A stretch of DNA of 64,000 nt from an uncultured Gemmatimonadota bacterium (GTDB lineage Bacteria; JAAXHH01; JABIQT01): positions 30,731 through 94,730 of the forward strand of contig CAYYIS010000008.1 in assembly GCA_964470965.1 (NCBI GenBank), read 5' to 3'. A program made the position numbers and the translations under genes. Positions 23,179 through 55,878 of the stretch are shown piece by piece; the first letter of the stretch is position 1, and each line of letters opens with the position of its first letter. Under the pieces are notes generated by a model. The model did not search any database and was not told where the DNA came from. It saw only the letters and a list, made by a program, of their open reading frames with translations.

Positions 23179-23183
23179 AGCTT

Positions 23184-24338: not shown

Positions 24339-24342
24339 AAGT

Positions 24343-24813
24343 TTATGCTCCGAGCACGACTTTATCGCCGATTACACTGACACCGAGCCGCACCAGCGGG
24401 ACCGGTGGCGGCCCACCTGTAACCTGTCCCTTTATATCGAAGCGGCCACCGTGACAAGGACAGATAAATTCCTGGTTTTTCTGCACCCATTTCACAGCAC
24501 ACCCCAGATGTGAACATGTCGCCATGAACGCGACAAATCCGTCCGGTCCGTTCACTACCAGCGCCGGTCGACCCCGATAGGTCACAACCTTGGCGGCGCC
24601 GGTCGGCAGTTCGGCCAGATCGATCTCGACCTTGCTGACACCTTTCGCTTCCGGCGGCGGCTCAATGTACCTTATCACAGGATATAGGAAACTCATCAGG
24701 CCCAGGCTGCTTATCAGCCCCATACACCTGGCCAGGAAACGGCGGCGCACTTCATATTTCGTAGGAGAACCTGTGGACGGCATAACGTCGTCCGGCGAAT
24801 TTAGCTGACCCAT
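24343..24813 (-). CDS. Rieske [2Fe-2S] iron-sulfur protein with Tat signal
   Basis: 156 aa. Rieske boxes 'CSHLGCAV' and 'CPCHGGRF'. Twin-arginine motif 'RRRFLARC' near the N-terminus. Confidence 0.85.
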   Translation of the reverse strand: MGQLNSPDDVMPSTGSPTKYEVRRRFLARCMGLISSLGLMSFLYPVIRYIEPPPEAKGVSKVEIDLAELPTGAAKVVTYRGRPALVVNGPDGFVAFMATCSHLGCAVKWVQKNQEFICPCHGGRFDIKGQVTGGPPPVPLVRLGVSVIGDKVVLGA

Positions 24814-32571: not shown

Positions 32572-32581
32572 GAACCGCTCC

Positions 32582-33394
32582 TCAACGGTAGGTGAGTTTC
32601 GGTTCCTCACCGAGCATTTTTACACCACTTACCATTATGCTGTTGTTGGATTCATAGGCCGCTTTACCGATCGGACGGGTGGCAGGTGAATGGTATCCGA
32701 TGCGTACGGACTTTCGCCACTGGTCGGTGCGGTTTACATCGGACCAGTGGATCAGGTAATAACTGAAAAAGACGACGTCGCCGGGGTGGGCGGGAACCGC
32801 AACGGTATCCACCTTGTCAGGATGATACGTATCCGGCGGGAGATAGGGCCGGGTATGTTCGCCTGTAATATGTTCGAGGGGCCCTCTGCAATGACTTCCA
32901 GGCACCACCTGAAGGCATCCGCTTTCATGGGGTGTTTCATCCAGGTGTATCAGGCAATCCACGAAATCAGGTCCATCATGGGGGTAAAACGGATAGTCCT
33001 GGTGCATAGGAAACGGCGTACCTTTCTCCGGCGGTTTGGCATGAAGGACCGTGTGATGCCACTGCACATCGTCACCGAGCAGGGCCCGAAGAGATGCTAC
33101 CAGGCCCGGATGGAATATCACACGACTCCACGCGGCGGAATACATATGCGGATTGGATATCAACACAGCCTTTGTCTTATACCGTTCATTCTCCTCCAGA
33201 TAAACATCCCGCCACGGCCCGCGCCATCCGATGCTGTCTTCCCCCCACCATTCCTCGATCAGCCACTTCATCTCTCGGTTGAGTTCATCAACATCGGCAG
33301 GCGGCACCAACCCTTCAACCTTCACATAACCGTCCCGCTGATACAATGCAACCTGCTGCTGCGACAACATGTAATTATGCCTTTTCAGCAACAA
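32582..33394 (-). CDS. Phytanoyl-CoA dioxygenase (PhyH) family oxygenase
   Basis: 270 aa. 'FPMHQDYPFYPHDGPDFVDCLIHLDETPHESGCLQVVPGSH'. An alternative start at 33370 would remove the 20-nt overlap with the upstream gene. Confidence 0.7.
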   Translation of the reverse strand: MLLKRHNYMLSQQQVALYQRDGYVKVEGLVPPADVDELNREMKWLIEEWWGEDSIGWRGPWRDVYLEENERYKTKAVLISNPHMYSAAWSRVIFHPGLVASLRALLGDDVQWHHTVLHAKPPEKGTPFPMHQDYPFYPHDGPDFVDCLIHLDETPHESGCLQVVPGSHCRGPLEHITGEHTRPYLPPDTYHPDKVDTVAVPAHPGDVVFFSYYLIHWSDVNRTDQWRKSVRIGYHSPATRPIGKAAYESNNSIMVSGVKMLGEEPKLTYR

Positions 33395-39636: not shown

Positions 39637-40482
39637 GTGAAACTTGCATTCTATAACAATTATACACTTGGTGTCATAGATGACGGAAACATCATGGATG
39701 CATCTGCCGCCGTCTCCGATATCACGCCATGCAACCCGCAGGCGTTGCTGGAAACGGTCATCGGAAACTGGGATACCTACGGTGCGCGTATCGCGGATGC
39801 GACACAGGGACAGAGTGGTGTATCGCTCGATAGCGTGACACTGGGCCCGCCGGTTCCACGACCGGGGCAGCTGGTCTGCCTGGCCGGTAATTTTATCGAA
39901 CCTGCAGTACCGAACAGAGGAAATTTCAATGCATTCCTTAAATCAAATACTTCGGTAATGGGCCAGAATGCCGTCGTCGAGCTGCCTGCGGCTGAGGCAA
40001 CCGTTTTCCACTTCGAACCTGAACTGGCGATCGTGATCGGCAGACGGGCAAGTAAGTTGTCCGCCGATGAAGCGCTGGACCATGTGTTCGGGTATGTGCA
40101 GTTCCTCGACGTTTCAGCCAGAGGATTGCCGGGGGGGTTCTTCCTGGGCAAAAGCTGGCATACCTTCGGGCCCATGGGACCGGCGCTGGTGACCGCCGAC
40201 GAGGTAGGCGACGCCAACCAGTTATCGGCAAAGATGTGGGTCAACGACACTTTGAAGCACGATTTCAACACCAACCAGATGGCCCGTTACATTCCCGAAC
40301 TTCTGGCAGAAGTAACTAACGTACTGACACTGGAACCTGGCGATGTGGTACCTACCGGAACGCACCACCACGCTCTTTCGCCTATCCAGAATGGTGACAG
40401 TATAACATTCGATGTAGAAAAATTGGGGCCCGCTCTGACGCTTACTGTAAAAGACGAGCAGGGAAGGACCTGGGAACGGTAG
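39637..40482 (+). CDS. Fumarylacetoacetate hydrolase (FAH) family protein
   Basis: 'FEPELAIVIGRRA' and 'GDVVPTGT' FAH motifs. GTG start at 39637 with a GGAGG Shine-Dalgarno 6 nt upstream; the longer ATG-initiated ORF from 39556 has no RBS. Confidence 0.7.
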   Translation: MKLAFYNNYTLGVIDDGNIMDASAAVSDITPCNPQALLETVIGNWDTYGARIADATQGQSGVSLDSVTLGPPVPRPGQLVCLAGNFIEPAVPNRGNFNAFLKSNTSVMGQNAVVELPAAEATVFHFEPELAIVIGRRASKLSADEALDHVFGYVQFLDVSARGLPGGFFLGKSWHTFGPMGPALVTADEVGDANQLSAKMWVNDTLKHDFNTNQMARYIPELLAEVTNVLTLEPGDVVPTGTHHHALSPIQNGDSITFDVEKLGPALTLTVKDEQGRTWER

Positions 40483-40483
40483 G

Positions 40484-41593
40484 TTAGAACAGGATCCTAT
40501 AAAAATCAGGATAGAACTGCTCCTCGACGAACGATCGGATATCGAGCCCGCCACTCAGGCCACTGGGCTGTACGAAGAATAGCGGATAAATTCGGGTATC
40601 AAGTGCATAAGGATCCACACGTCCGTTGGGGGAGTCCAGGTAGGACACTACAACATAATCCCCAAAATCCGGCAGCTGCATCAGTTGTATAGCGCCCGCT
40701 TTCATACCCAGATCAGAAAGCAGATGTTCAGCCTCCATACGCCCGGAGGCGATTTGCATCAGCAGCGAGATACCGGGCGCCTGTTCCAGGCCGTTCTGAA
40801 CCGCCTCAGTCATAAGGATCGCCTGCATAGTGCCTATGATCTGGTCGTTTTCACGGGGCGCAAATGATATGGCAGTCACATTCGGGGATTCCCAGTGCAC
40901 CGCATACAATTGTGTTGTCGCCTCCTGACGCAACAGAAACGCTAGACCGATACTCACGAGGGACAAGAGGAACCAGGCCGCCAGCGCCCTGGTGCGCCGC
41001 GGTGGTTTCCAGCCCCGCGCGCGGGCAGGCGAACGGAACGGGTTGAACATCGAAATCCGCGCCATATAGCGCTCACTGTCCTTACCGTATTTTCCTCGAA
41101 TCACTTCCTCTTCATGCCGCGCCAGCAGGTAATAAAGACCAAGCATCATCAGAAACGTCAACAGCACGAAGAAGCGAGGCCACATCAGCAGAAATCCCAG
41201 TCCGGAGATCGATAGGCAGAGATACTGTGGATGACGGACCCGGGCATACAACCCGCTGTTCACCAAAAGCCTTTTAACGAATTTCCCATAGTAGAGCTGT
41301 ACCGCACATGCCAGAAACCCCAGGAGTCCGATTCCGGCAAGCGGCGGTCCCAGATACGAGAGAGCGAGGAACAGTTGGTTTTTCGATTGGGCCAGGTGGG
41401 GTAAAAAAAACTGTGGTAGCCATGCAGTAGATTCAAAAAGAGTAAATGCGTGGATGATCGGCGTATACACGCTGTAAAAATACGCCGCGAACGGTGTCAC
41501 CATGATGATGACTTCAAGCGCACTCACAACATAGATGAGGATAGCAGGCAACCAGTGCCACTGAAAATGGTCGGAGGTGGGATTTTTCTTCAT
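40484..41593 (-). CDS. Isoprenylcysteine carboxyl methyltransferase (ICMT/PEMT) family membrane methyltransferase with a C-terminal extension
   Basis: 369 aa. 'VNSGLYARVRHPQYL' is the ICMT/PEMT SAM-binding signature. Multiple TM helices. Confidence 0.6.
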   Translation of the reverse strand: MKKNPTSDHFQWHWLPAILIYVVSALEVIIMVTPFAAYFYSVYTPIIHAFTLFESTAWLPQFFLPHLAQSKNQLFLALSYLGPPLAGIGLLGFLACAVQLYYGKFVKRLLVNSGLYARVRHPQYLCLSISGLGFLLMWPRFFVLLTFLMMLGLYYLLARHEEEVIRGKYGKDSERYMARISMFNPFRSPARARGWKPPRRTRALAAWFLLSLVSIGLAFLLRQEATTQLYAVHWESPNVTAISFAPRENDQIIGTMQAILMTEAVQNGLEQAPGISLLMQIASGRMEAEHLLSDLGMKAGAIQLMQLPDFGDYVVVSYLDSPNGRVDPYALDTRIYPLFFVQPSGLSGGLDIRSFVEEQFYPDFYRILF

Positions 41594-41601
41594 TGGGCCT
41601 G

Positions 41602-42570
41602 CTACTTCTTCAGCTCATAGTGCACGGATTTCCGGTGGTCACCACCGATTTGCTCCAGCACTGTTTTCGGGACTTTGCAAACCATGGTATACGCCGGATC
41701 GTACACATTTCCCACGTCGTATTCCACGCATTGACCGAGCAGCGTGTGGGCACCCACCGGGTCCAGTCCGTAGCCGTCCTGAAGCCATCGGGCCATCTCA
41801 GTGGTAGCATGCTGCAGCGCCTGATCGAGAGGACGTGCATTACCAGCCGTAAAGATGTAATCCTCGTTCTCGCCGCGCGGCCATCCAATCTTCATGCCTT
41901 TCAGAAGGCGAAAAGTTAGTTGTACGTCGAATGAGATCTCAATCCCGTTCCCGACGATTTCACCATCACCCTGCACTGCGTGTCCATCACCCACGTAGAA
42001 CAGTGCCCCGGGAACAAAAACCGGAAAATACACGGTTACACCCTCTACAAACCCCCTATAATCCATATTGCCGCCGTTCGTACCCGAGGTGGCGGTAGAA
42101 ATAGCCTGCCCTCTCGGCGGAGCGACCCCGAAACAGCCCAGCATGGGCGCCATCGGAAGCTTGAGGCGCCCGATACCCGTATCTTCTGGTGTAGTCAAGG
42201 TAACCCTGCGGTTCTCGAGATCCATTTCCCAGAAACAACTGTAGTCCTGCTGTGGCAGGTCACGGGTCAGTTGTATGACGTAATCGGGGTCGAGCACGCT
42301 GGGCGCCACCAAGGGAGAAGTAAATCCCCGTTGACGATTGGGTACCAGGGAATCGAGATGTACGGCCAGGGTATCACCGGGTTCTGCTCCGTCGATGTAA
42401 AAAGGTCCGGTCTGCGGATTACCTCGCTCTGTGACTGTTTCGCCTGTGTGGTCCTGGCCACGGGCATCCACCGTGGTGGTGACGAGTGTGTCACCATCGA
42501 CAACATGCAGGACCGGCTCATGGGAACCGAGTGTCGTATAATAATGTGTCGGTTCGAATCGATGGATCAT
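41602..42570 (-). CDS. Acetamidase/formamidase (FmdA/AmdA) family amidohydrolase
   Basis: 322 aa. 'GPFYIDGAEPGDTL', 'GGNMDYR' and 'GDGHAVQGDGEI' motifs of the FmdA_AmdA family. Confidence 0.75.
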   Translation of the reverse strand: MIHRFEPTHYYTTLGSHEPVLHVVDGDTLVTTTVDARGQDHTGETVTERGNPQTGPFYIDGAEPGDTLAVHLDSLVPNRQRGFTSPLVAPSVLDPDYVIQLTRDLPQQDYSCFWEMDLENRRVTLTTPEDTGIGRLKLPMAPMLGCFGVAPPRGQAISTATSGTNGGNMDYRGFVEGVTVYFPVFVPGALFYVGDGHAVQGDGEIVGNGIEISFDVQLTFRLLKGMKIGWPRGENEDYIFTAGNARPLDQALQHATTEMARWLQDGYGLDPVGAHTLLGQCVEYDVGNVYDPAYTMVCKVPKTVLEQIGGDHRKSVHYELKK

Positions 42571-42707
42571 GTGACCTCTGGTATCTTAATAGGAATTTGA
42601 TTCCGAAATCGATGACTACTATAGAGGCATGCCCTCCAGGGGTCAAGAGAAAAGCGGACTTCTACAGTAATAGAAATCTTTGAGTCGAGGCACCTTGAAT
42701 CTTTACC

Positions 42708-44654
42708 TTAATACATGTGCACCCGGTGGCCGTTGCCAGGGAACCATATTATATCTACAATATAAAGTAAAAAAATACCCACCGTGTAGCCGGCTATCAT
42801 CCCGACGACAAAGGGTTGTGCCTTTCTATACTGTGTGACGCCGCCGATGCGAAGGAGCAGAACTTTGGCCAGCCAAGCGATAAAGATGGAGAATGCCATA
42901 GTCGGCATGCCCTCTGTAGCGGCCACGGCGTATCCGATCGGATGTAGCGGCCATCCGGGAAACCTGTGATGAATGAAAATCAAAACCCCTCCCACAACAC
43001 TGCCTATGGCCATGAAAAAAAACTCGACACCGGAAAACACTCTTTTATTGTTGAGCCAGGTGACCAGGGTGTTGTAGGATCCGCGGCTACCACCTGGAAA
43101 AGGAGGATCGGTGAATTGCTGCGCGCCGCCGGTAAAGTACCCCAGATACAGCGTGTACAGAACGGTTGTGATCACACCTATTGCCAGCGTTACCGTGATC
43201 ACCCCGAATACGCCGCGCCCTATCCCGCCCATCTGATCTCCGACTTTGCTGACATGCGCCATAGAGCACATTCCGAGGGTCCGCCAATTATGGGAATAGG
43301 CGTTAGAGAGGGCAAGTTGGGTAAGATTCATCGGCGAGATGCTTCCGGATCCGATGGTTGAAACCGTAAAGGCATGCGCATTGTAGGGCAGATCCACGAA
43401 TATCAAACCTGTTTCCGCCACGATACGTGTGATCCCGATGAACATAAGCAGCAATGAACCCATAAGGAAAGCGGCGATTCCCAAAGACATACCGGATGTC
43501 TGCAACCAGGCAAATATAAAAAGCAGACCGAAGAACAGGCAGAATAGGGCGGTCCGGTAACTCAGAAATTCCTTTGAATCATCCACATCCGGTGCCAGAC
43601 CTACGGCTTTTCTCCAGACAAGTGTTAAATGGCGCCGGGCCATCCACAGCGTGAACAGTACGAACACAATAAATCCACCCATATGCTGGGAAGTGGCAAC
43701 CCACGGCGCCCGGGGGACCCCTACCCGTACCATGACACCGGTTTGGAATGTCTTGATAAGGAAAAACAACCAGGTACTGAGCAGCACATTTGTGTGGGTG
43801 AAGAATGCGACACCGGCGGTCAGAAAATTGAACGTGATAGGGACCTCCGGAAACGAGCGCGCCGGTAACAGGTTGTTCTTATACAGTGCGAGGATAGTAA
43901 TTTCGGGTAAAACGTTAAAAAAGCTAAGCATCTGCCAGAAGAGTACTCCAAGGGCGGTTCCGAATCCGATCCAGAACAACCGGTTTCCCGTGATGGCGGG
44001 TAAAAGGCTTTCTTCACGGTCTACCTTTATCATCGCCAGAGGAATCTGCGCCAGTGGAAATACCAACCGTTCGTGTTCGATCCACTGTTTCCGCAGGATG
44101 ACGATCAGGGATGCGCCCACTAGAAATATGGCGAGAAAAAAAAGGCTCCACCAGAACAGGGGGGTAACCCAGAATTGCCAAAGCATCGACTCGCCATCGG
44201 GTAGCCCTTCGTAAAACCAGGCCACAGAGCTGTAGTTAGACACGATGAGCCAGTCCGGTAGGTACTGGAAAAACGTCTCCACCCAGCGGTTTTCAGGTGA
44301 CGCGAAGTAAAGAGGGCCGCTGATGACACCAAGCCAGTATGAACTGAACGCCCACCCCGGAATAGAGGATGCAGTGAAGACCAGAAAAAAAATGATTATA
44401 AGTTCCTGGGGCGATAGGCCACGGCGGGGAGAAAGGAATTTGAATGCAGGATTCAACAAGAAAACCGTCAGCACGAACGGAAACAACGCCGCGATCGGTA
44501 TATGGCTGATCGTGATCAGGGAAGAATTGGCATTGTAGGAGGTGTGTATGGCCCAAATACACGAGAGAATCGAAAGGACAACTCCGATTCCGACAGCACG
44601 GATCGTTAGTCCGGAGGGCACCGTCCTGTGGGTATCAGAGCTGGCGTTGATCAT
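42708..44654 (-). CDS. Large polytopic membrane protein of unknown function (DUF-type, ~15 predicted TM helices)
   Basis: 648 aa from the ATG at 44654, which overlaps the upstream ALDH stop by 1 nt (ATGA coupling). Strongly hydrophobic helical segments throughout; no transporter family recognisable by eye. Confidence 0.55.
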   Translation of the reverse strand: MINASSDTHRTVPSGLTIRAVGIGVVLSILSCIWAIHTSYNANSSLITISHIPIAALFPFVLTVFLLNPAFKFLSPRRGLSPQELIIIFFLVFTASSIPGWAFSSYWLGVISGPLYFASPENRWVETFFQYLPDWLIVSNYSSVAWFYEGLPDGESMLWQFWVTPLFWWSLFFLAIFLVGASLIVILRKQWIEHERLVFPLAQIPLAMIKVDREESLLPAITGNRLFWIGFGTALGVLFWQMLSFFNVLPEITILALYKNNLLPARSFPEVPITFNFLTAGVAFFTHTNVLLSTWLFFLIKTFQTGVMVRVGVPRAPWVATSQHMGGFIVFVLFTLWMARRHLTLVWRKAVGLAPDVDDSKEFLSYRTALFCLFFGLLFIFAWLQTSGMSLGIAAFLMGSLLLMFIGITRIVAETGLIFVDLPYNAHAFTVSTIGSGSISPMNLTQLALSNAYSHNWRTLGMCSMAHVSKVGDQMGGIGRGVFGVITVTLAIGVITTVLYTLYLGYFTGGAQQFTDPPFPGGSRGSYNTLVTWLNNKRVFSGVEFFFMAIGSVVGGVLIFIHHRFPGWPLHPIGYAVAATEGMPTMAFSIFIAWLAKVLLLRIGGVTQYRKAQPFVVGMIAGYTVGIFLLYIVDIIWFPGNGHRVHMY

Positions 44655-46174
44655 TAATCTCCGAACGAGATTCCCTGTGCCAGGGGAAGGTCCGTCGACC
44701 AGTTGATCGTATTCGTCTGTCGGCGCATATAACTTTTCCACGCATCAGATCCGGATTCACGGCCACCGCCGGTCTCCTTCTCACCACCGAACGCACCGCC
44801 GATTTCAGCACCGGAGGTGCCGATATTAACGTTGGCGATACCACAATCGGAACCGGCAGAACCGAGAAAGCGTTCCGCCTGGCGGATGCTGTCAGTGAAT
44901 ATGGCGCTTGAAAGCCCCTGTGGGACGCCGTTGTGAATCTCCACGGCGTCTTCGAGTGCGTCGTATTCCATCAGATACAGAATCGGGGCGAACGTCTCAT
45001 CCTTTACAATATCTGTCTGACCGGGCATCTTGATGATCGTGGGCTCAACGAAGTTCGGCCCGACATCGGCCTTGGCATTCCCACCGGAAAGCACCTCGCC
45101 ACCCTGGGCCTTCGCCTGTTCGATGGCCTTCATCATATCCTCGACCGCACCACCGGTAACCAATGGCCCCATAAGCGTGGCATCGTCGAGCGGGTCTCCG
45201 ATCGGAACCTGTTCGTAGGCGTTGACCAGCCGATCCGTGAGTGTCGGCATGATACTTTTATGGCCGATAATACGGCGTGTAGAAGTACATCTCTGACCCG
45301 CCGTACCTACCGCACCGAAAACAATCCCACGGGTCGCCAATTCCAGGTCCGCTTTTTCAGTGACGATTATAGCGTTGTTACCGCCCAGCTCCAGTATGGT
45401 ACTTCCAAAGCGACCGGCAACAGCGGCTGATACTTTTCTGCCGGTTTGGGTTGAGCCGGTGAAGGAGACTAGTGGTAACCGGGAGTCTTCCAGCATCATA
45501 CTGCCCACATCGCTGCCCCGGCCAATGGTCAGACCAAAGAGGCCATCCAGACCGTGGTCTCCCATGACCCGGTTGCAGAGATGCTGGACTGCGATGGCGG
45601 TCAGCGGCGTCTGACCGCTCGGCTTCCAAACCATAGTGTCGCCACAGACTGCGGCCAGAGCTGCGTTCCAGGACCACACGGCTACCGGAAAATTGAAGGC
45701 CGTGATGATACCTACCACACCGAGCGGATGCCACTGCTCGTACATGCGGTGCAGCGGACGCTCGCTGCCCATGGTCATGCCGTACAACTGCCGGGAGAGA
45801 CCGACGGAGTAGTCACAAATATCTATCATCTCCTGAACTTCTCCCATACCCTCCATCCGGATTTTGCCCATCTCAAGTGATACGAGTTCGCCCAATGGCT
45901 CTTTGTACTCCCGCAGGACATTGCCGAGGTCCCGGACTACCTCGCCGCGTTTGGGGGCCGGCGTCATTCGCCAAGTCTTGAAGCAACCGGCGGCTTTTTC
46001 GACAACCGCATTGTACACATCCGGCGTCGCCTGTCGCACCCCGGCGATCGGCTCACCGTTGGTTGGATTGTAGGAGGTTAAAATCGGCCCTTCGGTGTGG
46101 ATCCAGCCGTCGGGACCGTGGCAGGCCCCGTGATTAATCTCTTCTATATACAGTTTTTCGAGCAGTGCTTTCAT
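44654..46174 (-). CDS. Aldehyde dehydrogenase, ALDH7 (antiquitin / piperideine-6-carboxylate / aminoadipate-semialdehyde dehydrogenase)-like
   Basis: 506 aa. 'VSLEMGKI', 'VDICDYSVGLSR', 'GIITAFNFPVAVW', 'ELGGNNAIIV' and 'GTAGQRCTSTRR' align closely with ALDH7A1. Confidence 0.8.
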   Translation of the reverse strand: MKALLEKLYIEEINHGACHGPDGWIHTEGPILTSYNPTNGEPIAGVRQATPDVYNAVVEKAAGCFKTWRMTPAPKRGEVVRDLGNVLREYKEPLGELVSLEMGKIRMEGMGEVQEMIDICDYSVGLSRQLYGMTMGSERPLHRMYEQWHPLGVVGIITAFNFPVAVWSWNAALAAVCGDTMVWKPSGQTPLTAIAVQHLCNRVMGDHGLDGLFGLTIGRGSDVGSMMLEDSRLPLVSFTGSTQTGRKVSAAVAGRFGSTILELGGNNAIIVTEKADLELATRGIVFGAVGTAGQRCTSTRRIIGHKSIMPTLTDRLVNAYEQVPIGDPLDDATLMGPLVTGGAVEDMMKAIEQAKAQGGEVLSGGNAKADVGPNFVEPTIIKMPGQTDIVKDETFAPILYLMEYDALEDAVEIHNGVPQGLSSAIFTDSIRQAERFLGSAGSDCGIANVNIGTSGAEIGGAFGGEKETGGGRESGSDAWKSYMRRQTNTINWSTDLPLAQGISFGD

Positions 46175-46290
46175 GGGTCTAGATTCCTCAACTGTGGTTG
46201 TGTGAAACTTTATGCTTGCGGAACATTCTATCAGTACAAATAATATGAAAAAATGTCAACTACAAGATCGTATCAAAAGAAAGCGGGCAA

Positions 46291-47571
46291 ATGACGGGAA
46301 AGACAATTTATCAGAATGATCTTGTGGGGATTTTGTCCGAATTCGGGATGGAGAATCACCTCGCAAAGTGGGAAGTTGGTTGGCAGGTCTCATCCCGGTC
46401 TTATCAGGGGAATGCGCTTCACTTCATCCAAGCGGATTATGTAGATGAGCAATGCCGCTTCCTGGGAATGACCGCTGAAATGCGGTCCGAGGTCGTGGCC
46501 GGATCCGAGATGTTTAGGCGCATACCGATGTTAAAACCTCTGCTCTGGCACTGCCATGATCTCGCCTTCCGACAGACAGTCCCGCTTCACCACGGCGTAT
46601 TCCGCAACTGGTCGCCCATTCCCGATGCCGTCGACTCCTGCGCGGCCATGTTCTTTATTTACCTGTTTCTTTCAGGCGTACCCTATACTCTGGCGATGCA
46701 CCAGAATCTGAAGATTCCTCGGCAGGTTTCGGTCGATACTATGCGGGACCTCCTGGTGTGGATTGGTGATGAATTGAGAAAAACGGGACAGTGGGGACTG
46801 GATTTTTCACAGGTCAGTTGGCTCGGCCTGCATTTTACCGGTAACCTGTTCCAGCTGGGTCGGCTACAGTTTGACCGGAACAACTGCTATTATGACTTCC
46901 AGGCGTTCAAGCGGAAGTCCGATGGCCACATCGTCGTTCTGGCCGGTGACGGTCAGCGGTTCCGGAGCGATGGCCAGTTTGACGGCGCCAACGATACGAC
47001 CGACCCCAAGGCCTGGAACGCGGCTTTCCGGTCGACGGACACCGCTGTAACCGGCCACCCGCTCCATCCTGAAGGATACGCACAACATGAAACCGTAGAA
47101 TTACCAACCGCCGAATGGCATCGGGTTCTGGCACCAGGAGATACGACCATCGGCGTGCACATACCGGGTACAGGACCGATGGATTTCGATCAATGCGGCA
47201 ATTCATTCGGCCAGGCGCTGTCGTTCTGGCCAACCCATTTCCCGGAACACCGTGTCCACGCCTTTCTCTGTACCTCATGGCTCCTCGATCCCCAGTTCGA
47301 GCAAACTTTGCAACCGAACAGTAATATCGTTCGCTTTTTAAGGGAATGGTATTTGCTGCCTTTGCCTCATGCCGGTGGCGGGGAAACACTTAGGCGGGTT
47401 TTCGGTGTCCGGGAGGTGGGCGACGATAAGCTGTCCGCATTGTCGCAGAACACGTCGCTCGAACGTGCCGTCGTTCGTCATATCCAGTCAGGCGGCCAAT
47501 GGCGGGGCCACGGAGCGGTCATGTTTCCACACCATATGAACTGGGGTAAACAGGTTTACAGGCAAGGGTGA
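46291..47571 (+). CDS. Hypothetical protein (possibly acyltransferase-like, unconfirmed)
   Basis: 426-aa ORF with good coding character and no motif I can assign. Divergent from the ALDH operon. Confidence 0.3.
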   Translation: MTGKTIYQNDLVGILSEFGMENHLAKWEVGWQVSSRSYQGNALHFIQADYVDEQCRFLGMTAEMRSEVVAGSEMFRRIPMLKPLLWHCHDLAFRQTVPLHHGVFRNWSPIPDAVDSCAAMFFIYLFLSGVPYTLAMHQNLKIPRQVSVDTMRDLLVWIGDELRKTGQWGLDFSQVSWLGLHFTGNLFQLGRLQFDRNNCYYDFQAFKRKSDGHIVVLAGDGQRFRSDGQFDGANDTTDPKAWNAAFRSTDTAVTGHPLHPEGYAQHETVELPTAEWHRVLAPGDTTIGVHIPGTGPMDFDQCGNSFGQALSFWPTHFPEHRVHAFLCTSWLLDPQFEQTLQPNSNIVRFLREWYLLPLPHAGGGETLRRVFGVREVGDDKLSALSQNTSLERAVVRHIQSGGQWRGHGAVMFPHHMNWGKQVYRQG

Positions 47572-47669
47572 GGAGAAGGGATTAAGGAGAAATCGAAACC
47601 CTGCATCCATTCGATCTGGTCTGTAAATTCAATGATATTGTTTTCCATGAACTGATAATGCTTTATCCA

Positions 47670-48671
47670 TCAATCAACGTCCCTGTACAGGCTCTGAACC
47701 GTTTTTACTACGGCAGCTTCGTTCGGAATGGTCGAGGGTTCCAGAGAGGGACTGAAGGGAACCGGGACATCCATGGCACCGAGTCGTTTTACCGGGGCAT
47801 CTAGATAGTCGAACGCTTCGTCGCCTATCAAGGAGGCTATTTCGGCGGTTACCCCGTAGCTTCGGTGGCCTTCGTCAATGACCAGGGCTCGGCTCGTTTT
47901 CCTGACCGAACTAAGGATCGTTTCGGTATCAAGCGGACTGAGCGTTCTCGGGTCAACCACTTCGACGCTTATGCCGTCTTCCTCCTGGAGTGTACCGGCC
48001 GCGTCCAAGGCTACCTGTACCATGCTGGAAGTGGCGACAATCGTGACATCAGATCCCTCTCTTTTGACGTCGGCTATCCCGATTGGTACCGTGTGGTCGA
48101 CACCTTCCGGCACCATACCTTTGACGCTGTACATCATCTTGTCTTCGTAAATAATGACCGGGTTTTCGTCCCTGATCGCGGATTTTAATAGGCCTTTGAG
48201 ATCGGCCGGGGTGGAAGGAATAAGAACCTTGATACCGGGAATATGCGCCATCCACGCTTGAAGGCTCTGGGAATGCTGCGCCGCTGAAGACCGGCCTGCA
48301 CCGATAGTGGTACGAATAGTAAGTGGAACACTGGTTTGACCGCCCGTCATGTAGCAGAGCTTGGCGGCCTGGTTCACGACCTGGTCCATGGCGATCGTTA
48401 TGAAATCACCGAACATTATTTCGACAATCGGTCGCATACCGGTCAGGGCGGCGCCCACTCCGGCCCCCATGATGCCGGCCTCCGAGATGGGCGTGTCTCT
48501 GATCCGACCCGGACCGAACTCGTCGACAAGACCGGCGGTTACTTTAAACACACCTCCGGCCGCCGCTACATCTTCTCCCATAAAAAAAACGGTCTCATCC
48601 CGGCGCATCTCTTCGGCGATCGCCTCGCGCACCGCTTCTCCGAATGTGATCTCTCTTTCAGATGTAGACAT
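47670..48671 (-). CDS. 2-oxoacid (pyruvate/acetoin/branched-chain) dehydrogenase E1 component, beta subunit
   Basis: 333 aa. 'FFMGEDVAAAGGVFKVTAGL', 'DTPISEAGIMGAGVGAALTGMRPIVEIMF' and the 'GDVTIV' transketolase-C region. Confidence 0.85.
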   Translation of the reverse strand: MSTSEREITFGEAVREAIAEEMRRDETVFFMGEDVAAAGGVFKVTAGLVDEFGPGRIRDTPISEAGIMGAGVGAALTGMRPIVEIMFGDFITIAMDQVVNQAAKLCYMTGGQTSVPLTIRTTIGAGRSSAAQHSQSLQAWMAHIPGIKVLIPSTPADLKGLLKSAIRDENPVIIYEDKMMYSVKGMVPEGVDHTVPIGIADVKREGSDVTIVATSSMVQVALDAAGTLQEEDGISVEVVDPRTLSPLDTETILSSVRKTSRALVIDEGHRSYGVTAEIASLIGDEAFDYLDAPVKRLGAMDVPVPFSPSLEPSTIPNEAAVVKTVQSLYRDVD

Positions 48672-49677
48672 GTTCAGCCACCTCTTCCTTGGCCGGAAAC
48701 GGCGCCAGTTTCCCGAATTCCACAGCGTGGCTTACGGCCTGTTTTATCGTTTGATCGATGTCTTCAATTCCCGCCTCGGTCGCCATGCCCGATGTCACCA
48801 TTCGGCGGGCCAACCGGGTAATCGGATCTCTGGTCTTCCAGGAGTCTGTCTCTTCCTGGGTTCGATATGTTTTCTCTGGATTTCCATCGCCCACATGGTG
48901 GCCGCGATACCGGTACGTTTTGGTTTCTATCATGCAGGGCCCGTCGCCTGAGCGAGCGCGTTCCACCATCTTGAGGGTAGTTTCATACACGGCGGCCACG
49001 TCCATACCATCAACAACCAGGGCAGGCATGTTAAAACCAGCCGCCCGTTCAGCCACGTGTTCTTTGATGGCGGTGACCTGTTTATGGTTCGTGTATTCAC
49101 CGTACTGATTGTTCTCACACACAAAAAGTACCGGAAGGTTCCAGACGGATGCCATATTAGCCGCCTCAAGGAATGATCCCTGATTCGCAGCACCATCACC
49201 GAAGAAACAGACTGCAACCTGGTCGGTGCCGCGTAACTGTGCGGACAAACCGGCGCCTGTAGCCATACCCATACCCCCACCGACGATACCATTGGCGCCC
49301 AGGATACCGAGGCTCATATCTGCGATATGCATCGTGCCTCCTTTACCTCGGTTATACCCGGTCTCCTTACCCATCATCTCCGCCATCATGCGATCCACAT
49401 GACCGCCTTTGGCTATCAGGTGACCGTGCCCGCGATGGGTGCTGGTAATGTAATCATCATCACGAAGCGCAGAACAGACCCCCACTGCTGATGCCTCTTG
49501 ACCGATATACGGATGGGCGAGTCCAGGCATAAGCCCCTGAGTATAAACTTCCAGAACCGCTTCTTCGAACCGACGTATGGTTACCATCTTCTGGTACATG
49601 TCGGCGCAAAGCTCAGGCGAAAGCGTGAGGTCTGTGTCATCACTGGTTGAAGGTATAATCTGGATTTCATCCGTCAT
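48658..49677 (-). CDS. 2-oxoacid dehydrogenase E1 component, alpha subunit (TPP-binding)
   Basis: 'GQEASAVGV', 'THRGHGH' and the TPP motif 'GDGAANQGSFLEAANMASVWNLPVLFVCENNQYGE'. Start chosen at the ATG with AGGAG upstream; the longer ORF extends to 49725. Confidence 0.8.
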   Translation of the reverse strand: MTDEIQIIPSTSDDTDLTLSPELCADMYQKMVTIRRFEEAVLEVYTQGLMPGLAHPYIGQEASAVGVCSALRDDDYITSTHRGHGHLIAKGGHVDRMMAEMMGKETGYNRGKGGTMHIADMSLGILGANGIVGGGMGMATGAGLSAQLRGTDQVAVCFFGDGAANQGSFLEAANMASVWNLPVLFVCENNQYGEYTNHKQVTAIKEHVAERAAGFNMPALVVDGMDVAAVYETTLKMVERARSGDGPCMIETKTYRYRGHHVGDGNPEKTYRTQEETDSWKTRDPITRLARRMVTSGMATEAGIEDIDQTIKQAVSHAVEFGKLAPFPAKEEVAEHVYI

Positions 49678-49804
49678 AGTACGCCGCACTCCTTTATTAA
49701 TTGAACACAAACCGGAATTCGACACGTGACTGCATTCATGTTTTATTCGAGAATCAGGCTTTCTAAATTAGTGAAACGTTTACGAAGGAGCAAGAGGAAA
49801 ATAT

Positions 49805-50398
49805 CTACTGGACATTTCGAGATCTCCCCAAGCGTTTCATGGCGTACGGAACGAGCACTATCATTAACACCAGTTCCGGAATGATGTAGCTGCCGTTGTA
49901 CAGAAGGGAGTATAACCACGGCGTCACGCCACCTTGTAACAAGGGCGGAAATGAAATACCAAGATACTCGTTGAAAAATTGATAGGTCTGTCGGTTTAAA
50001 CCGTCCGGGGCGTAAGCCGCAAAAAAAATGGCACCGGAGATCACATGAAAAACCAGCCCCGCTGCGCTGGACAGGCATATGCCCCACCTGGGTGACCTGC
50101 GGAACCATCCTGCGATGCCAATGGAGATGTATGGCAGAATAAAATCGAGCAGAACCTGAACCGGATGAAGGATTACAGGATCGAACATAAACGTGATAAG
50201 TCCGGTGATAAATCCGCCCGCCATACCCGCTTTGGGACCACACCGGAATGCCAGATAGAATAACGGAAGGAGTTTCAACGAAACAGAACCGCCCCAGGGC
50301 AGACGGTATAATTTAAAGAACCCGAGGACGGTCGCCAACGAAGCTACAACTGCGATCTCAACGAGCAAACGCTTCCGATCAGTCTGGGTGTTTGCCAT
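49805..50398 (-). CDS. thiT: Energy-coupling-factor-type thiamine transporter S component
   Basis: 197 aa, 6 TM. 'LLVEIAVVASLA', 'AGMAGGFITGLIT' and 'GIAGWF' align with L. lactis ThiT (LLTEIAFMAALA ... GIAGLF). Confidence 0.6.
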   Translation of the reverse strand: MANTQTDRKRLLVEIAVVASLATVLGFFKLYRLPWGGSVSLKLLPLFYLAFRCGPKAGMAGGFITGLITFMFDPVILHPVQVLLDFILPYISIGIAGWFRRSPRWGICLSSAAGLVFHVISGAIFFAAYAPDGLNRQTYQFFNEYLGISFPPLLQGGVTPWLYSLLYNGSYIIPELVLMIVLVPYAMKRLGRSRNVQ

Positions 50399-51008
50399 GT
50401 CCGTTAAGGCTTGCCGCCCGTTCGATGTGGGCCAGTTCCACCAGGCGTTTCACGATCTGCTCGAGGGAATCGTCGAGTTTGCGCATCCGTTCCGCGGTGG
50501 AGGTCAGTTCGAGGAGTGTCTGCTTTTCTTCCAGTTCCAAATCCATTGTCGATGCTATAAAGAAGGAAAACTGTTTCGGGTCGAATATCCCCTTCACGCC
50601 ACCTATCCCGCTTGTTTGAAGTTTTATCATGGCCTGATAGGATTCCAGTACGCGTTCCAGCAGGTCATCCGGTACGTCATCATTCACATCGTCGAAATAC
50701 TCGATAGTAGCTTCCAGGAGATCGTCGTCTTGTATGAATTCAAGGACATGAAACCGCCTGCTACCTTCGGTGAGTATATCTAATTTACCGTCCGCATACT
50801 GTGTATACACCTGCGTGACTTTAGCAGTACACCCCACATTGGAGAGTTGCGCGTCGTTGAGTAACAGGACGCCGAATTCGGACTCGGACTTAAGGCAATT
50901 GTCTACCATCTCCTTATAACGCTCTTCGAATATATGCAATGGAAGATGCATCCCCGGATACAATACCAGATTCAGTGGAAAGAGGGGAATGTTAAGCGTG
51001 TTTTCCAT
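50379..51008 (-). CDS. LON-protease substrate-binding (N-terminal) domain protein
   Basis: 209 aa. 'IPLFPLNLVLYPGMHLPLHIFEERYKEM' is the canonical start of the LON N-domain. No AAA+ or protease domain. Confidence 0.65.
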   Translation of the reverse strand: MENTLNIPLFPLNLVLYPGMHLPLHIFEERYKEMVDNCLKSESEFGVLLLNDAQLSNVGCTAKVTQVYTQYADGKLDILTEGSRRFHVLEFIQDDDLLEATIEYFDDVNDDVPDDLLERVLESYQAMIKLQTSGIGGVKGIFDPKQFSFFIASTMDLELEEKQTLLELTSTAERMRKLDDSLEQIVKRLVELAHIERAASLNGHGKHPD

Positions 51009-51238
51009 CGTACCGTGCTCCAGATATCTAGTGGGCCTTCTTGTAATTGTAAATTTGGAAATGCACCGTACTAATCCAAGGTCCGATGTTTGTCCATTAT
51101 ACAGTCGGTGGCAACCGTGTCAACGGAAAAAACTGAACCGCGAAAACCTGATGAAATGCTTGACTGCAACACCATCCCACACTATATTAATGTACTCTGC
51201 AGTTTCCATAAATAAGGGCATTTACAGGCGACTCCTTA

Positions 51239-52870
51239 ATGAGTTTATCGGAGAATAAAAAGACGCGTCGGAGTACGCGAGATGTTAGACAGGATTTCAG
51301 GACTATCTCCGGGGAATCGATCAATCCTCTTTACACTCCTGAGGACAGGGCTGACTCCGAATATGCTGACGACCTGGGAGATCCTGGTGTCTATCCTTAT
51401 ACCCGAGGCATCCACACCACCATGTACCGGGACCGGCTGTGGACTATGCGTCAGTTCTCCGGCTACGGTACGGCCGCTGATTCCAACTCACGGTTTAAAT
51501 TCCTACTCGAACACGGTCAAACCGGGCTGTCTGTCGCCTTTGACGTACCGACCCTGATGGGGCTGGATTCCGATCATCCCCTTTCCGAAGGAGAGGTCGG
51601 TGTCTGTGGTGTGGCGGTCGACTCTCTTGCTGATATGGAAACCCTGTTTGAGGGCATACCGCTCGGCTCGGTAAGTACGTCCATGACGATCAACGCACCA
51701 GCGTCGATCCTGCTGGCCATGTACCTCGCAGTAGCGGAAAAGCAAAGCGTGGCCTGGGCTGACCTGCGGGGTACGCTTCAGAATGACATCCTCAAGGAAT
51801 ATATCGCACAGAAAGAGTGGATATGTCCCCCCCGACCAGCCATGAAGATGGTGGCAGATACGGTCCTTTTCTGTACCGAACACGTTCCGCAGTGGAATCC
51901 CATCAGCATCAGCGGATATCATATCCGTGAAGCTGGTTCGACAGCCGTGCAGGAACTGGCTTTCACCCTGGCAGATGGATTTGCATACATCGACGCTTGC
52001 CTCGAAGCCGGTTTGGACATCGATCAGTTTGCCCCCCGCCTGTCATTCTTCTTCAATTCTCATATGGATTTCTTCGAAGAGATTGCCAAGTACCGTGCTG
52101 CCCGCCGCATCTGGGCCAAACATCTGAAACATCGGTACGGGGCCAGGAATGAAAAATCTCTCCTGATGCGCTTTCACACACAGACGGCCGGATGTAGTCT
52201 GACCGCCCAGCAGCCGGAAAACAACGTGGTCCGAACCACCATAGAAGCATTGGCAGCCGTCCTTGGAGGTACACAGTCGCTCCACACGAACGCACTCGAT
52301 GAGGCGTATGCCCTTCCCTCTGAACAGGCTGCAAAAATCGCCCTGCGGACCCAGCAGATCATCGCCCACGAATCCGGTGTGACTAACACAGTGGATCCAC
52401 TCGGCGGATCTTATTATCTCGAATCACTCACCGATAGCCTGGAAGATGCCGCAGAGGCCTATTTCGATAAAATCGCGTCGTTTGGCGGGATGGTAAGGGC
52501 CATTGAGGCGGGGTATCCTCAGAAAGAGATAAGCGACGCATCCAAGCGGTTTCAACATGCGGTGGAACAGGAAGAGCAGATTATAGTGGGCGTGAATGAA
52601 TATGTAGAACCCGATGAGTCGGATATAGAAATGCTCAGGATCGGCCCAGCCATCGAACGCGCACAAATCAGCCATCTCAAAGATACCAGAGACCGGCGCA
52701 GTGCATTAAAAGTGGAGCAGGCATTGCATGTATTGCGTGATACTGTGTCGATGGGTGGCAACTCCATGCCACCCATCCTGGATGCTGTCCGGGCATATGC
52801 TACGATCGGTGAAATTGTTAACGTGTTGCAGGCGGTGTACGGGACCTACGACGAATCGCCTGTTTATTGA
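51239..52870 (+). CDS. Methylmalonyl-CoA mutase family, large (substrate-binding TIM-barrel) subunit lacking the C-terminal B12-binding domain
   Basis: 543 aa. '[28 protein letters not shown]', '[11 protein letters not shown]' and '[23 protein letters not shown]' MCM motifs. Ends before any DxHxxG cobalamin-binding module. Confidence 0.8.
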
Positions 52871-52899
52871 CAGTGTCAGTCGTCCTGTAAGGAGTTTCC

Positions 52900-53649
52900 A
52901 TGAATACGATTGTCTGTATCAAGCAAGTACCGGATACGGCAACAAAGGTCCAGATTGCCGCCGACGGACGCTCAATCCAGTCCGGGGAATTGAACTATGT
53001 AATGAACCCCTACGACGAGTTCGCGGTTGAAGCCGCCACCACGCTGAAGGAACAGCACGGCGGCGAGGTGACCGCCGTCTGCCTCGGGACCCAGGATGCA
53101 GTAGCCGCGCTGCGTAGTGCTGTTGCTCTGGGCGCCGACCATGCCGTCCTGCTGAAGACCGACCGGCCAGACATCGATGCCTCCGCCACAGCCACCGCTC
53201 TCGCCGAGGCAATCCGGGCTCGGTCTCCCGATCTTGTATTGTTCGGCAAACAGGCCGTGGATGACGATAATGCCCAGGTCGGTCCGATGGTCGCCGAATT
53301 ACTGTCGATACCCTGTGTGTGCCAGATCGTAAATCTGGAATACAAGGATGGAATCGTGATGGTTAATAAACAGGTGGAGGGAGGCGAAGAAGTGGTATCT
53401 GTGTCCTTACCGACAGTGCTCACCACTCAAAAAGGATTGAATGAGCCGCGCTATGCCTCGCTCAAAGACATCATGCGTGCCAAGCGGGCGCCCATAGATG
53501 AACAGGAAGTGTCTCTGATCCCTTCACGGGTAGAAACTATTGAACTCAACCTCCCTGCGGAACGTCAGGCGGGGCTGTTTATCGGTCAGGGCACGGAGGC
53601 TGTACCTGAACTGATTCAGCGGCTGAAAGAAGAAGCGAAAGTGTTGTAG
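52900..53649 (+). CDS. etfB: Electron transfer flavoprotein, beta subunit
   Basis: 249 aa. 'MNTIVCIKQVPDT' and 'VLFGKQAVDDDNAQVGPMVAELL'. Confidence 0.85.
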   Translation: MNTIVCIKQVPDTATKVQIAADGRSIQSGELNYVMNPYDEFAVEAATTLKEQHGGEVTAVCLGTQDAVAALRSAVALGADHAVLLKTDRPDIDASATATALAEAIRARSPDLVLFGKQAVDDDNAQVGPMVAELLSIPCVCQIVNLEYKDGIVMVNKQVEGGEEVVSVSLPTVLTTQKGLNEPRYASLKDIMRAKRAPIDEQEVSLIPSRVETIELNLPAERQAGLFIGQGTEAVPELIQRLKEEAKVL

Positions 53650-53695
53650 ACCCCGATGCTCAGCCTTTTCGAGCATCTGTCACAAAGGGAACATC

Positions 53696-54877
53696 ATGAG
53701 TAAAAAAAAACCGGGTCTCTCGACCAAAGCGGTACATGCCGGCGAGTGCCGGGAAAAGCCGTCCCGGGCCATCACCAATCCTATCGTTCAGACATCTACG
53801 TATGTGTTCCGTAATACCGAAGAACTGATCGATTTCAACGAAGGTCGAATCGAAAGGGACGAATACGGTCGGTACGGCAACCCGACTAGGGCTGTGGCGG
53901 AAGCGAAGATTGCAAATTTGGACGGAGGAGAAGACGCGTTATTATTCTCATCGGGTATGAATGCCATCGTGTCAGTCCTTCTCGCCATGCTTTCACAAGG
54001 GTCTCATGTGGTGATCATGGATGAGTGCTACCGGCGGACCCGTCAGTTCTGTCTTCAAGTGTTGCCCCGATATGGAATCGAAGTTTCGTTCGTAAAAACC
54101 GGTGATTACGAAGCCATGCAAAAGGCTATTACGGAAAAGACGCGGCTGATCGTATCGGAGTCTCCAACTAATCCGTACCTGAACGTGATCGATCTGGAAC
54201 GGATCGCGTCCATTGCAAAAGAGCATCGCCTGAAAGTCATGATCGACAGTACGTTTTCCACGCCGTACAACCAGCGTCCGATCGAATTCGGGATAGATAT
54301 CGTAATACACAGTGCCACCAAATATCTGGGTGGTCACAACGACCTGATGGCCGGTGTGGTGGTCGGTAACAAGATGTTGCTGGGCGCTATCCGTGAATTT
54401 AGGGACATCACTGGCGGCATTACCGATCCCCATACGGCCTATCTATTGATCCGGGGTTTAAAATCCTTTGCGCTGCGTATGGAGCAGCACAATAAAAACG
54501 GTATGGCCATCGCCCGGTTCCTGGAAGAACATCCAAAGGTCCGTCGCGTATATTATCCAGGTCTGGAAAGCCATCGGCATTACGACATTGCGCAACGTCA
54601 AATGACCGGATTCGGAGGTGTTGTCAGCTTCGAGTTGGATGGCGACATGGACATGACGAGTCAATTCATCGACAGCCTGGAGCTGCCTTACATCGGTCCG
54701 AGCCTGGGTGGCGTGGAGAGTTTGATCGAGCAACCGGCACTACAATCTTTCTATGAAATGAGTAAGGAAGAACGGCTGGCTATCGGGATCAAGGATGAAC
54801 TGGTAAGATTTTCCACAGGTGTTGAAAATGCCGATGATCTGATCACGGACCTGGCACAGGCTCTGGATAAAATATAG
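53696..54877 (+). CDS. PLP-dependent Cys/Met-metabolism enzyme (cystathionine gamma-synthase / beta-lyase / methionine gamma-lyase family)
   Basis: 393 aa. 'TKAVHAG', 'YGRYGNPT' and the PLP-Lys motif 'HSATKYLGGH'. Confidence 0.75.
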   Translation: MSKKKPGLSTKAVHAGECREKPSRAITNPIVQTSTYVFRNTEELIDFNEGRIERDEYGRYGNPTRAVAEAKIANLDGGEDALLFSSGMNAIVSVLLAMLSQGSHVVIMDECYRRTRQFCLQVLPRYGIEVSFVKTGDYEAMQKAITEKTRLIVSESPTNPYLNVIDLERIASIAKEHRLKVMIDSTFSTPYNQRPIEFGIDIVIHSATKYLGGHNDLMAGVVVGNKMLLGAIREFRDITGGITDPHTAYLLIRGLKSFALRMEQHNKNGMAIARFLEEHPKVRRVYYPGLESHRHYDIAQRQMTGFGGVVSFELDGDMDMTSQFIDSLELPYIGPSLGGVESLIEQPALQSFYEMSKEERLAIGIKDELVRFSTGVENADDLITDLAQALDKI

Positions 54878-54894
54878 TTTGATGAGGAGAATAT

Positions 54895-55878
54895 ATGGCA
54901 GGTGTACTCGTTTTCGCAGAACAGAGAGACGGCACATTTCGGAATGCGGCATTTGAAGCGGTTAGTGTGGGACGCAGGCTGGCCGATGAGCTGAATACTG
55001 AGCTGGTAGCAGCGGTCGTAGGGGCAGGTGTCAGAGACATGGCAGCCTCTCTCGGGCGGTACGGCGTTGACAGGGTGATCGTGGCTGATGCCCCGGACCT
55101 CGCACGGTTTTCCAGCGATGGATATACGACGGCGGTGGCCGACATCGCACGTTCGTTTGACCCATCTGTTTTATTGCTCTCGGCCTCGGTCACGGGTAAA
55201 GCACTTGGACCGGCGGTGGCAGCCCGCTTGGAAACCGGCCTGGCAACAGACTGTATCGATATTTTGATAGCAGGTGGACGCCTGGAGATCCAGCGACCGG
55301 TCTATGCGGGTAAAGCCATCGCCACCGTTATCATCAAGACAGATCCGCAGATCGTCTCGCTTCGTCCCAATGTGTTTCCCGCTACCGTTATGGATGAGCA
55401 GGGATTCGCGCCGGTGGAGCAGGTGTCGGCAGGAGTTACCGCTGACTGCACCCGCGTGGCGGTTCAGGAGATCGTAGCTGCCTCCGGCGGCAGGCCGGAT
55501 TTAACGGAATCGCCTGTTATCGTCTCCGGTGGCCGCGGCCTGGGCAGTCCCGAGAATTTCTCACTCATCGAGGAGCTGGCCGATGTGCTGGGCGGTGTGG
55601 TCGGTGCTTCACGAGCGGTGGTGGATATCGGTTGGCGTCCCCAGTCCGACCAGGTCGGCCAGACCGGCAAGACCGTATCGCCCTCATTATATATCGCCTG
55701 CGGCATCTCGGGCGCCATACAGCACCTGGCGGGAATGTCATCCTCCAAATGTATCGTGGCCATCAACAAGGATCCAGATGCCCCGATCTTCCAAAAGGCG
55801 GATTACGGTATCGTTGGGGATGTGCTCGAAGTGGTGCCAGCGCTCACGGCGGAACTGCGGCGAGTTCTAGGACGCTGA
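54895..55878 (+). CDS. etfA: Electron transfer flavoprotein, alpha subunit
   Basis: 327 aa. 'PVIVSGGRGLGSPENF', 'LGGVVGASRAVVDIGW' and 'QVGQTGKTVSPSLYIACGISGAIQHLAGM'. Confidence 0.85.
   Translation: MAGVLVFAEQRDGTFRNAAFEAVSVGRRLADELNTELVAAVVGAGVRDMAASLGRYGVDRVIVADAPDLARFSSDGYTTAVADIARSFDPSVLLLSASVTGKALGPAVAARLETGLATDCIDILIAGGRLEIQRPVYAGKAIATVIIKTDPQIVSLRPNVFPATVMDEQGFAPVEQVSAGVTADCTRVAVQEIVAASGGRPDLTESPVIVSGGRGLGSPENFSLIEELADVLGGVVGASRAVVDIGWRPQSDQVGQTGKTVSPSLYIACGISGAIQHLAGMSSSKCIVAINKDPDAPIFQKADYGIVGDVLEVVPALTAELRRVLGR

Follow-up and report, generated by a model that had tools for sequence, protein, structure and literature searches.

What connects an aldehyde dehydrogenase to a very hydrophobic membrane protein when the stop codon of the one overlaps the start codon of the other? 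The question is raised by a 64-kb stretch of contig CAYYIS010000008.1, from an uncultured marine bacterium of the Gemmatimonadota; this whole stretch is called the window below, and it is the scope of every search said to have been made there. Its table of open reading frames (ORFs), the translations and the junction sequence were read directly. On the minus strand, the ORF of a 506-aa aldehyde dehydrogenase (ALDH; 44654..46174) precedes that of a 648-aa polytopic membrane protein (42708..44654), while a gene for a 426-aa N-acyltransferase homologue (NAT; 46291..47571, plus strand) is transcribed divergently from the ALDH gene. The reading favoured here, to which we give a probability of about 55%, is that the ALDH and membrane-protein genes form a clade-specific operon, in which an importer with the fold of the OPT transporters is linked to the aminoadipate-semialdehyde (AASA) step, with a substrate that is possibly lysine-derived.

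Read on the minus strand, the junction of the two genes (44652..44662) has the letters GGAGATTAATGATC. The final A of the ALDH stop codon TAA (44656..44654) is at the same time the first base of the membrane-protein ATG (44654..44652), giving the 1-nt overlap at 44654 that the original prediction had described, and a Shine-Dalgarno-like GGAG (44662..44659) lies 4 nt before this ATG. The maximal ORF of the membrane protein is longer (42708..44741, minus strand) and opens with a GTG at 44741. The ATG at 44654, which yields the 648-aa form, is the likely start, because homologues are 640-665 aa long and their alignments begin at residues 3-17 of that form. With such a junction, the two genes would be co-transcribed and translationally coupled.

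The ALDH scores 425 bits against Pfam Aldedh and 772.4 bits against the NCBIfam equivalog NF050084 (pip_6_carb_DH; cutoff 730), the next model reaching 294 bits. Its full-length matches in PDB include Streptomyces Pcd (6rtr, 603 bits) and human ALDH7A1 (4x0t, 547 bits). When it is aligned with Pcd 6rtr, seabream antiquitin 2jg7 and an ALDH7-like structure, the motifs EVQE, GQRCT and ELGGNN and the C-terminal PLAQGI are all kept, and E115, within EVQE, corresponds to E120 of the seabream protein. In the human enzyme, the aminoadipate-binding residues are Glu121, Arg301, Thr303 and Gly461/Ala462, the first three of which form ion pairs or hydrogen bonds with aminoadipate (PMC11362210). The window enzyme has the catalytic Cys, the general-base Glu, the AASA-binding Glu/Arg/Thr set and the C-terminal crook, and its binding residues for the alpha-amino and alpha-carboxylate groups of AASA are retained. 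Judged by sequence, it is a canonical ALDH7-type L-piperideine-6-carboxylate / 2-aminoadipate-semialdehyde dehydrogenase, as had been proposed, and it would oxidise 2-aminoadipate 6-semialdehyde / piperideine-6-carboxylate to 2-aminoadipate with NAD+.

These residues also bear on the substrates that were suggested originally, when the pair was seen as a dedicated and undescribed uptake/oxidation module, possibly for betaine-aldehyde-like osmolyte precursors or lipid aldehydes, with an orphan membrane protein. ALDH7 enzymes are indeed able to oxidise betaine aldehyde and medium-chain aldehydes (PMC11362210), and the tight coupling of the two genes would suit a module of this kind. However, the enzyme carries the AASA-specific Glu/Arg/Thr set and passes the equivalog cutoff for piperideine-6-carboxylate dehydrogenases, the neighbourhood holds no choline or betaine gene, and the membrane protein is not an orphan (see below). 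With the AASA-binding residues retained, betaine-aldehyde and lipid-aldehyde substrates were rejected as the primary reading, and a module for them is the least probable of the explanations considered here. The ALDH7 assignment, the overlap and the idea of a transporter survive from that proposal, but not the orphan status, the view that nothing of the kind is described, or these two kinds of substrate.

The membrane protein matches two Pfam families of unknown function, both above the gathering threshold: DUF6785 over residues 17-509 (369.4 bits, profile positions 1-498 of 498) and DUF6784 over residues 546-636 (84.3 bits, profile positions 2-92 of 101). Both domains are found in 32 of 32 aligned homologues. 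An exhaustive profile search recovered 7,151 representatives of 50%-identity clusters at E<=1e-3 and 2,450 at E<=1e-30, so that a protein first described as an orphan belongs to a family with thousands of members. The named matches are from metagenome-assembled genomes (MAGs) of Latescibacterota, Zixibacteria, Gemmatimonadota and Planctomycetota, and the closest homologues of the window protein are labelled Latescibacteria or Zixibacteria. A literature search on DUF6785, DUF6784, PF20581 and PF20580 found no papers. Strong hydrophobicity and some 15 transmembrane helices had been predicted, in agreement with a grand average of hydropathy (GRAVY) of 0.71 and with the about 14-16 membrane-length helices of the structural model; 12 Kyte-Doolittle segments are counted.

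Single genomes often carry several DUF6785 copies, frequently as tandem or convergent pairs, and paralogues are numerous in Latescibacterota, Gemmatimonadota and related MAGs. Such pairs, 8-90 bp apart and with 33-42% identity to the query, occur at loci L013, L014, L018, L021, L032, L033, L040, L044, L048, L057, L059, L068, L070 and L077; the arrangement suggests that copies arose by local duplication more than once, or possibly that they are used as heteromers. Three metagenome contigs (L104 1259-1733, L105 4285-4759, L106 6001-6475) match residues about 12-108 of the transporter only, at 58% identity, as the start of a split match; they could be copies that were truncated or became pseudogenes, or else a short homologue of the N-terminal part.

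Structure prediction gives the membrane protein the fold of Yellow Stripe 1 (YS1) over the whole chain, with both the core and the scaffold domain, at 11-13% identity to the HvYS1 structures 7wsr and 7wst. The match is specific, because neither HvYS1 domain had a structural homologue according to its authors (PMC9691689). HvYS1 is a proton symporter for which an elevator mechanism has been proposed (PMC9691689). Its proton-coupling acidic residues are Asp446, Asp490 and Asp494 of the core, and its dimer interface involves a C-terminal beta-strand and a disulfide. The DUF6785 family alignment, read by sequence only, shows three invariant acidic residues (E84, E362, D634) and five that are nearly so (E121, E149, E195, D359, E414). 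The OPT/YSL core has an inverted repeat, TM1-3 being related to TM8-10. A comparison of the N-terminal and C-terminal halves by hhalign paired residues 6-65 with 354-404, which are expected repeat regions, though at a non-significant probability of 1.5%. On the strength of the model, the protein probably works like an OPT/YSL transporter; it would be a sequence-divergent prokaryotic form of the Yellow Stripe 1/OPT fold and most likely a proton-coupled, elevator-type secondary importer. The idea that it is a transporter is supported in this way. Placement in a known family by structure prediction had been named in advance as one of two findings that would speak against a new module, and it is provided here by the fold together with the Pfam DUFs; the other, the loss of the pairing, is taken up below.

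The neighbours of DUF6785 paralogues give some view of what the family may carry. Within four genes on either side, the families met most often are those of sulfatases (at 15 loci), PhyH dioxygenases (at 10 + 7), enolase-superfamily enzymes (MR_MLE, 10), gamma-glutamyltranspeptidase (GGT, 9), xylose-isomerase-like TIM barrels (AP_endonuc_2, 9) and Gfo/Idh/MocA oxidoreductases (9), and in four cases an M32 carboxypeptidase gene is the immediate (±1 gene) neighbour. The GGT and M32 neighbours would fit peptide or glutathione-type substrates of OPT proteins. Specificity would be set for each paralogue separately, since the family is large, with many paralogues per genome, each beside different catabolic enzymes.

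The link with ALDH7 is a property of one clade. In four lineages, every orthologue with at least 62% identity to the window protein has an ALDH7 gene directly upstream (L080-82/L095; L083-85/L094/L096/L107; L090). The orthologous loci form three sublineages, 80-99% identical mutually and 62-66% identical to the window, and their ALDHs share 79-82% identity with the window enzyme and likewise exceed the NF050084 cutoff. Metagenome relatives were found by a scan with an alignment of the orthologues; a scan with a single protein was too specific and gave no relatives. The linkage persists despite rearranged flanks and an inserted agmatinase-like gene, at 62-66% identity for the transporter and 47% for the NAT. 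Because of this persistence, a substrate whose catabolism yields AASA is suggested, and the window orthologue would most plausibly import a lysine-derived amino acid or small peptide-like compound that is broken down via AASA. In this account the ALDH identity, the overlap, the fold match and the distribution of the pairing are results, while transport itself, its direction, the coupling ion and a lysine-derived substrate are inferred.

A number of results weigh against this reading. The OPT profile PF03169 is unmatched at E<=10 in 32 of 32 family members, and the family profile has no match at E<=10 among PDB sequences, HvYS1 included. Membership of OPT at the sequence level (PF03169, TC 2.A.67) was rejected for want of any profile or PDB-sequence match, and the protein is not filed as a sequence-defined OPT member; since sequence similarity to OPT is undetectable, the transport claim rests on the predicted fold. 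Neighbours of the paralogues point equally to sulfated sugars and to peptides. The pairing with ALDH7 is seen in two deep branches only, the window and the sister group, and could represent inherited synteny. No ALDH7 gene lies within the 8 kb that was searched at any of 79 distant loci (32-54% identity) taken from GTDB species representatives; homologues at 58% and 53% identity likewise have none, and altogether about 95 loci of homologues with at most 58% identity are without it. At locus L091, from a related genome, an ALDH7 gene (77%) is divergent from a NAT gene (52%), with a VWA-domain gene in the place of the transporter and no DUF6785 remnant beside ALDH7. The loss of the pairing, the other finding named in advance, therefore applies only in part: the pairing is kept in all orthologues with at least 62% identity, but is absent from the more distant loci and from L091. 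A search of the window for an AASA-generating enzyme (lysine dehydrogenase, aminotransferase, pipecolate oxidase, phospho-lyase) found none, nor were orthologues of the agmatinase-like, PhyH-like and phospho-lyase proteins of the sister loci found there.

Much of this would also be expected if the gene order had simply been inherited, with no shared pathway behind it. The ALDH7 would then serve housekeeping lysine catabolism or a stress response, the DUF6785 protein would import an unrelated substrate (peptides, sulfated or oxidised organics, as its paralogues may), and the overlap would reflect compact packing. The confinement of the pairing to two deep lineages, its absence from the paralogue loci, the NAT-ALDH pair of L091 and the window's want of an AASA-generating enzyme all agree with such a history, as does the spacing of the genes, for the codon overlap is found in the window alone and the orthologous loci have gaps of 9-36, 160 or 164 nt. 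It fits less well with the way in which NAT, ALDH7 and DUF6785 have stayed together though both flanks were replaced, a gene was inserted and the proteins diverged to the identities given above, or with the shared strand, the 1-nt overlap and the Shine-Dalgarno sequence in the window. Inherited synteny, the main rival, is considered a somewhat unlikely explanation, and the clade-specific operon remains the preferred one.

The preferred reading also takes the membrane protein to be an importer. It could instead export 2-aminoadipate or an N-acylated product of the divergent NAT, or act as a membrane enzyme or scaffold. The fold cannot tell the direction of transport, and the conserved Tcp24-like NAT could make an acylated amine that needs an exit. 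Yet the characterised members of the fold (YS1/YSL, OPT and CptA of Campylobacter jejuni) import, the paralogues lie beside hydrolases and catabolic enzymes rather than in biosynthetic clusters, and the NAT-ALDH pair of L091 does without the membrane protein. A role other than import is judged very unlikely, and the direction assumed for the ALDH7-linked protein below is inward.

The sister branch offers a plausible source of AASA. Its gene order (L080 3840-15677; L083 4043-17411; also L094, L096 and L107) is NAT (divergent), agmatinase-like, ALDH7, DUF6785, PhyH-like and sometimes a 541-aa protein without a family; on the opposite strand there follow a sulfatase and then a 1,029-aa APH-M23-aminotransferase-III fusion (NCBIfam PRK06148). 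The agmatinase-like protein scores 196 bits with TIGR01230 (cutoff 174), and for the pyridoxal-phosphate domain of the fusion, the best solved relative (499 bits) is ethanolamine-phosphate phospho-lyase, whose enzyme family also includes 5-phosphohydroxylysine phospho-lyase. Bacterial fusions of a kinase with an AGXT2L-type enzyme reportedly led Veiga-da-Cunha et al. in 2012 to 5-hydroxylysine kinase and 5-phosphohydroxylysine phospho-lyase, and the latter is said to yield aminoadipate semialdehyde. Homoarginine, degraded by the PhyH-like oxygenase and the agmatinase-like hydrolase, would be an alternative source. The sister cluster may be a catabolic island for hydroxylysine or guanidino compounds. 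Any single compound named as the substrate of the window transporter is a tentative suggestion. Carried furthest, the argument would make DUF6785/DUF6784 an extensive branch of the Yellow Stripe/OPT elevators in prokaryotes that has gone unrecognised, and a main means of nutrient uptake in Latescibacterota, Gemmatimonadota and related lineages, with the ALDH7-linked orthologue importing for a new lysine-derived catabolic route that converges on AASA, for example from 5-hydroxylysine by way of the kinase/phospho-lyase fusion, or from homoarginine by the two enzymes just named for it. This extended version is speculative and, as a whole, unlikely.

The divergent 426-aa protein, originally of no known family, is a homologue of the Tcp24/Dbv8-type N-acyltransferases, with matches to NAT_N (PF18082, 69.3 bits) and GNAT_C (PF18164, 125.6 bits), to Tcp24 in PDB (4q36/4mfj, E 4.6e-28) and to Dbv8 (4mfz, E 2.6e-25). 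The alignment falls in two blocks, residues 65-195 and 283-406, which indicates that about 85 residues are inserted in the C-terminal domain. Proteins of 420-435 aa from environmental bacteria make up the small subgroup to which it belongs. Its gene is divergent from ALDH7 at L080, L083, L091, L094-96 and L107; more distant NAT homologues have no adjacent ALDH7. Three long NAT_N/GNAT_C homologues (P0291, P0296, P0302) are fused to a NUDIX hydrolase domain, a hint, from domain composition, that the long subgroup may use a nucleotide-linked or CoA-linked substrate. The 116-bp intergenic region between the ALDH7 and NAT genes (46175..46290) is AT-rich and is presumed to be a shared promoter region; a consensus sigma-70 scan placed no site in it, and an Rfam scan of 40000-50500 matched no RNA family. 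L091 and the window share their gene order rightward from NAT (E1-beta 90%, E1-alpha 81%). The collinear part (46291-55878 in the window, 7001-15305 in L091) holds NAT, E1-beta, E1-alpha, a ThiT-like protein (Thia_YuaJ), a Lon N-domain protein, methylmalonyl-CoA mutase, electron-transfer-flavoprotein (ETF) beta and a Cys/Met PLP enzyme. The etfBA pair is unusually interrupted in the window, where the ETF-beta-like gene (52900-53649) and ETF-alpha (54895-55878) are separated by a Cys_Met_Meta_PP gene (cystathionine lyase/synthase-type, 53696-54877); L091 has the same order.

Downstream of the membrane-protein gene, and on the same strand, lie the two genes that had been labelled a formamidase and an ICMT-like methyltransferase. 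The layout, with the 426-aa gene divergent, is as first described, but neither gene reaches the curated cutoff for the function in its label. The first (41602..42570, minus strand) encodes a short, 322-aa protein of the acetamidase/formamidase family (FmdA_AmdA, 95 bits), closest in PDB to the structural-genomics entries 5ubu and 3tkk ("putative acetamidase/formamidase"); a true formamidase FmdA was rejected, as NF045496 gives 52.8 bits against a cutoff of 500. The second (40484..41593, minus strand), 8 bp away, encodes a 369-aa membrane protein with at least 4 hydrophobic segments and a PEMT/ICMT-like methyltransferase segment at residues about 100-180 (Pfam PEMT 29.9 bits, cutoff 25; PDB 4a2n, E 0.013); ICMT itself was rejected (Pfam ICMT 20.5 bits against 24; NF040696 35.9 bits against 160). 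Because the 137-bp gap between the membrane-protein and FmdA-like genes holds a promoter-like site, TTGACC-17-TATAGT (42618..42646, minus strand; 10/12 matches in a consensus scan, a pattern match only), these two genes may form a separate transcription unit. At locus L088 (8001-14932; P0010 clade, the next-closest, 53% identity), a sulfatase gene precedes the transporter and a conserved 129-aa protein without a family follows it, after which the opposite strand carries a 503-aa FmdA_AmdA protein, a PALP enzyme and GGT. From the layouts of L088 and the window, an FmdA-family amidase recurs near two DUF6785 clades. Elsewhere in its 64 kb, the window has four genes of the PhyH family (5284-6108, 13850-14626, 32582-33394, 60849-61685) and one for a TauD-family Fe/2-oxoglutarate dioxygenase (31741-32610); in other genomes, too, PhyH genes rank high among the neighbours of DUF6785 paralogues. 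Three genes, for a Rieske protein, a cytochrome b and a multihaem cytochrome c, occupy 22381-24813 on the minus strand and are followed by the gene of a 915-aa protein with PIG-L (GlcNAc de-N-acetylase) and NPCBM-associated domains (19715-22462).

For two Pfam DUFs, the locus provides a first lead to function that can be put to the test; together they make up a family of thousands that dominates parts of the membrane proteome in poorly known uncultured phyla. The ALDH7-linked orthologue gives a defined start for guesses at substrates, namely compounds that feed AASA.

Compared with known systems, the parts of the locus differ in how familiar they are. The ALDH is an already known kind of enzyme with nothing unusual about it: it shares with ALDH7A1, antiquitin and bacterial Pcd-AmaB the equivalog cutoff, the catalytic and AASA-binding motifs and the C-terminal crook, and differs from Pcd-AmaB in its genomic partner, a membrane protein of predicted OPT fold, where known bacterial pcd/amaB genes adjoin genes for lysine aminotransferase, lysine dehydrogenase or pipecolate oxidase. 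The acyltransferase comes from a known family, of which it is a divergent member in unusual surroundings. Like Tcp24 (Orf11*) and Dbv8, the glycopeptide N-acyltransferases of teicoplanin and A40926, it has NAT_N and GNAT_C, both of which align, but it is about 90 residues longer, with the insertion between residues about 196 and 283, and in place of a glycopeptide cluster it is surrounded by ALDH7 and the 2-oxoacid dehydrogenase E1 beta and alpha genes, with no NRPS (nonribosomal peptide synthetase) or glycosyltransferase genes. The logic of an operon that joins an importer to a catabolic enzyme is common and ordinary. As to the membrane protein, it represents a catalogued, unstudied family that appears to adopt a known but rare transporter fold. 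By its model it resembles YS1/YSL and OPT proteins (TC 2.A.67, PF03169) over the whole chain, while Pfam splits it into two DUFs and its family is known only from prokaryotic MAGs. The OPT member CptA of C. jejuni imports Cys-Gly, the product of GGT (PMC7340319). It is alike in being a bacterial secondary importer, with the same superfamily fold and a functional tie to GGT, which several DUF6785 paralogues adjoin; unlike DUF6785, CptA is recognisable as OPT by sequence, and the window orthologue adjoins ALDH7 rather than GGT. The useful new point is that structural modelling would place DUF6785/DUF6784 in the Yellow Stripe/OPT class, and that the linkage to ALDH7, confined to one clade, narrows the choice of candidate substrates.

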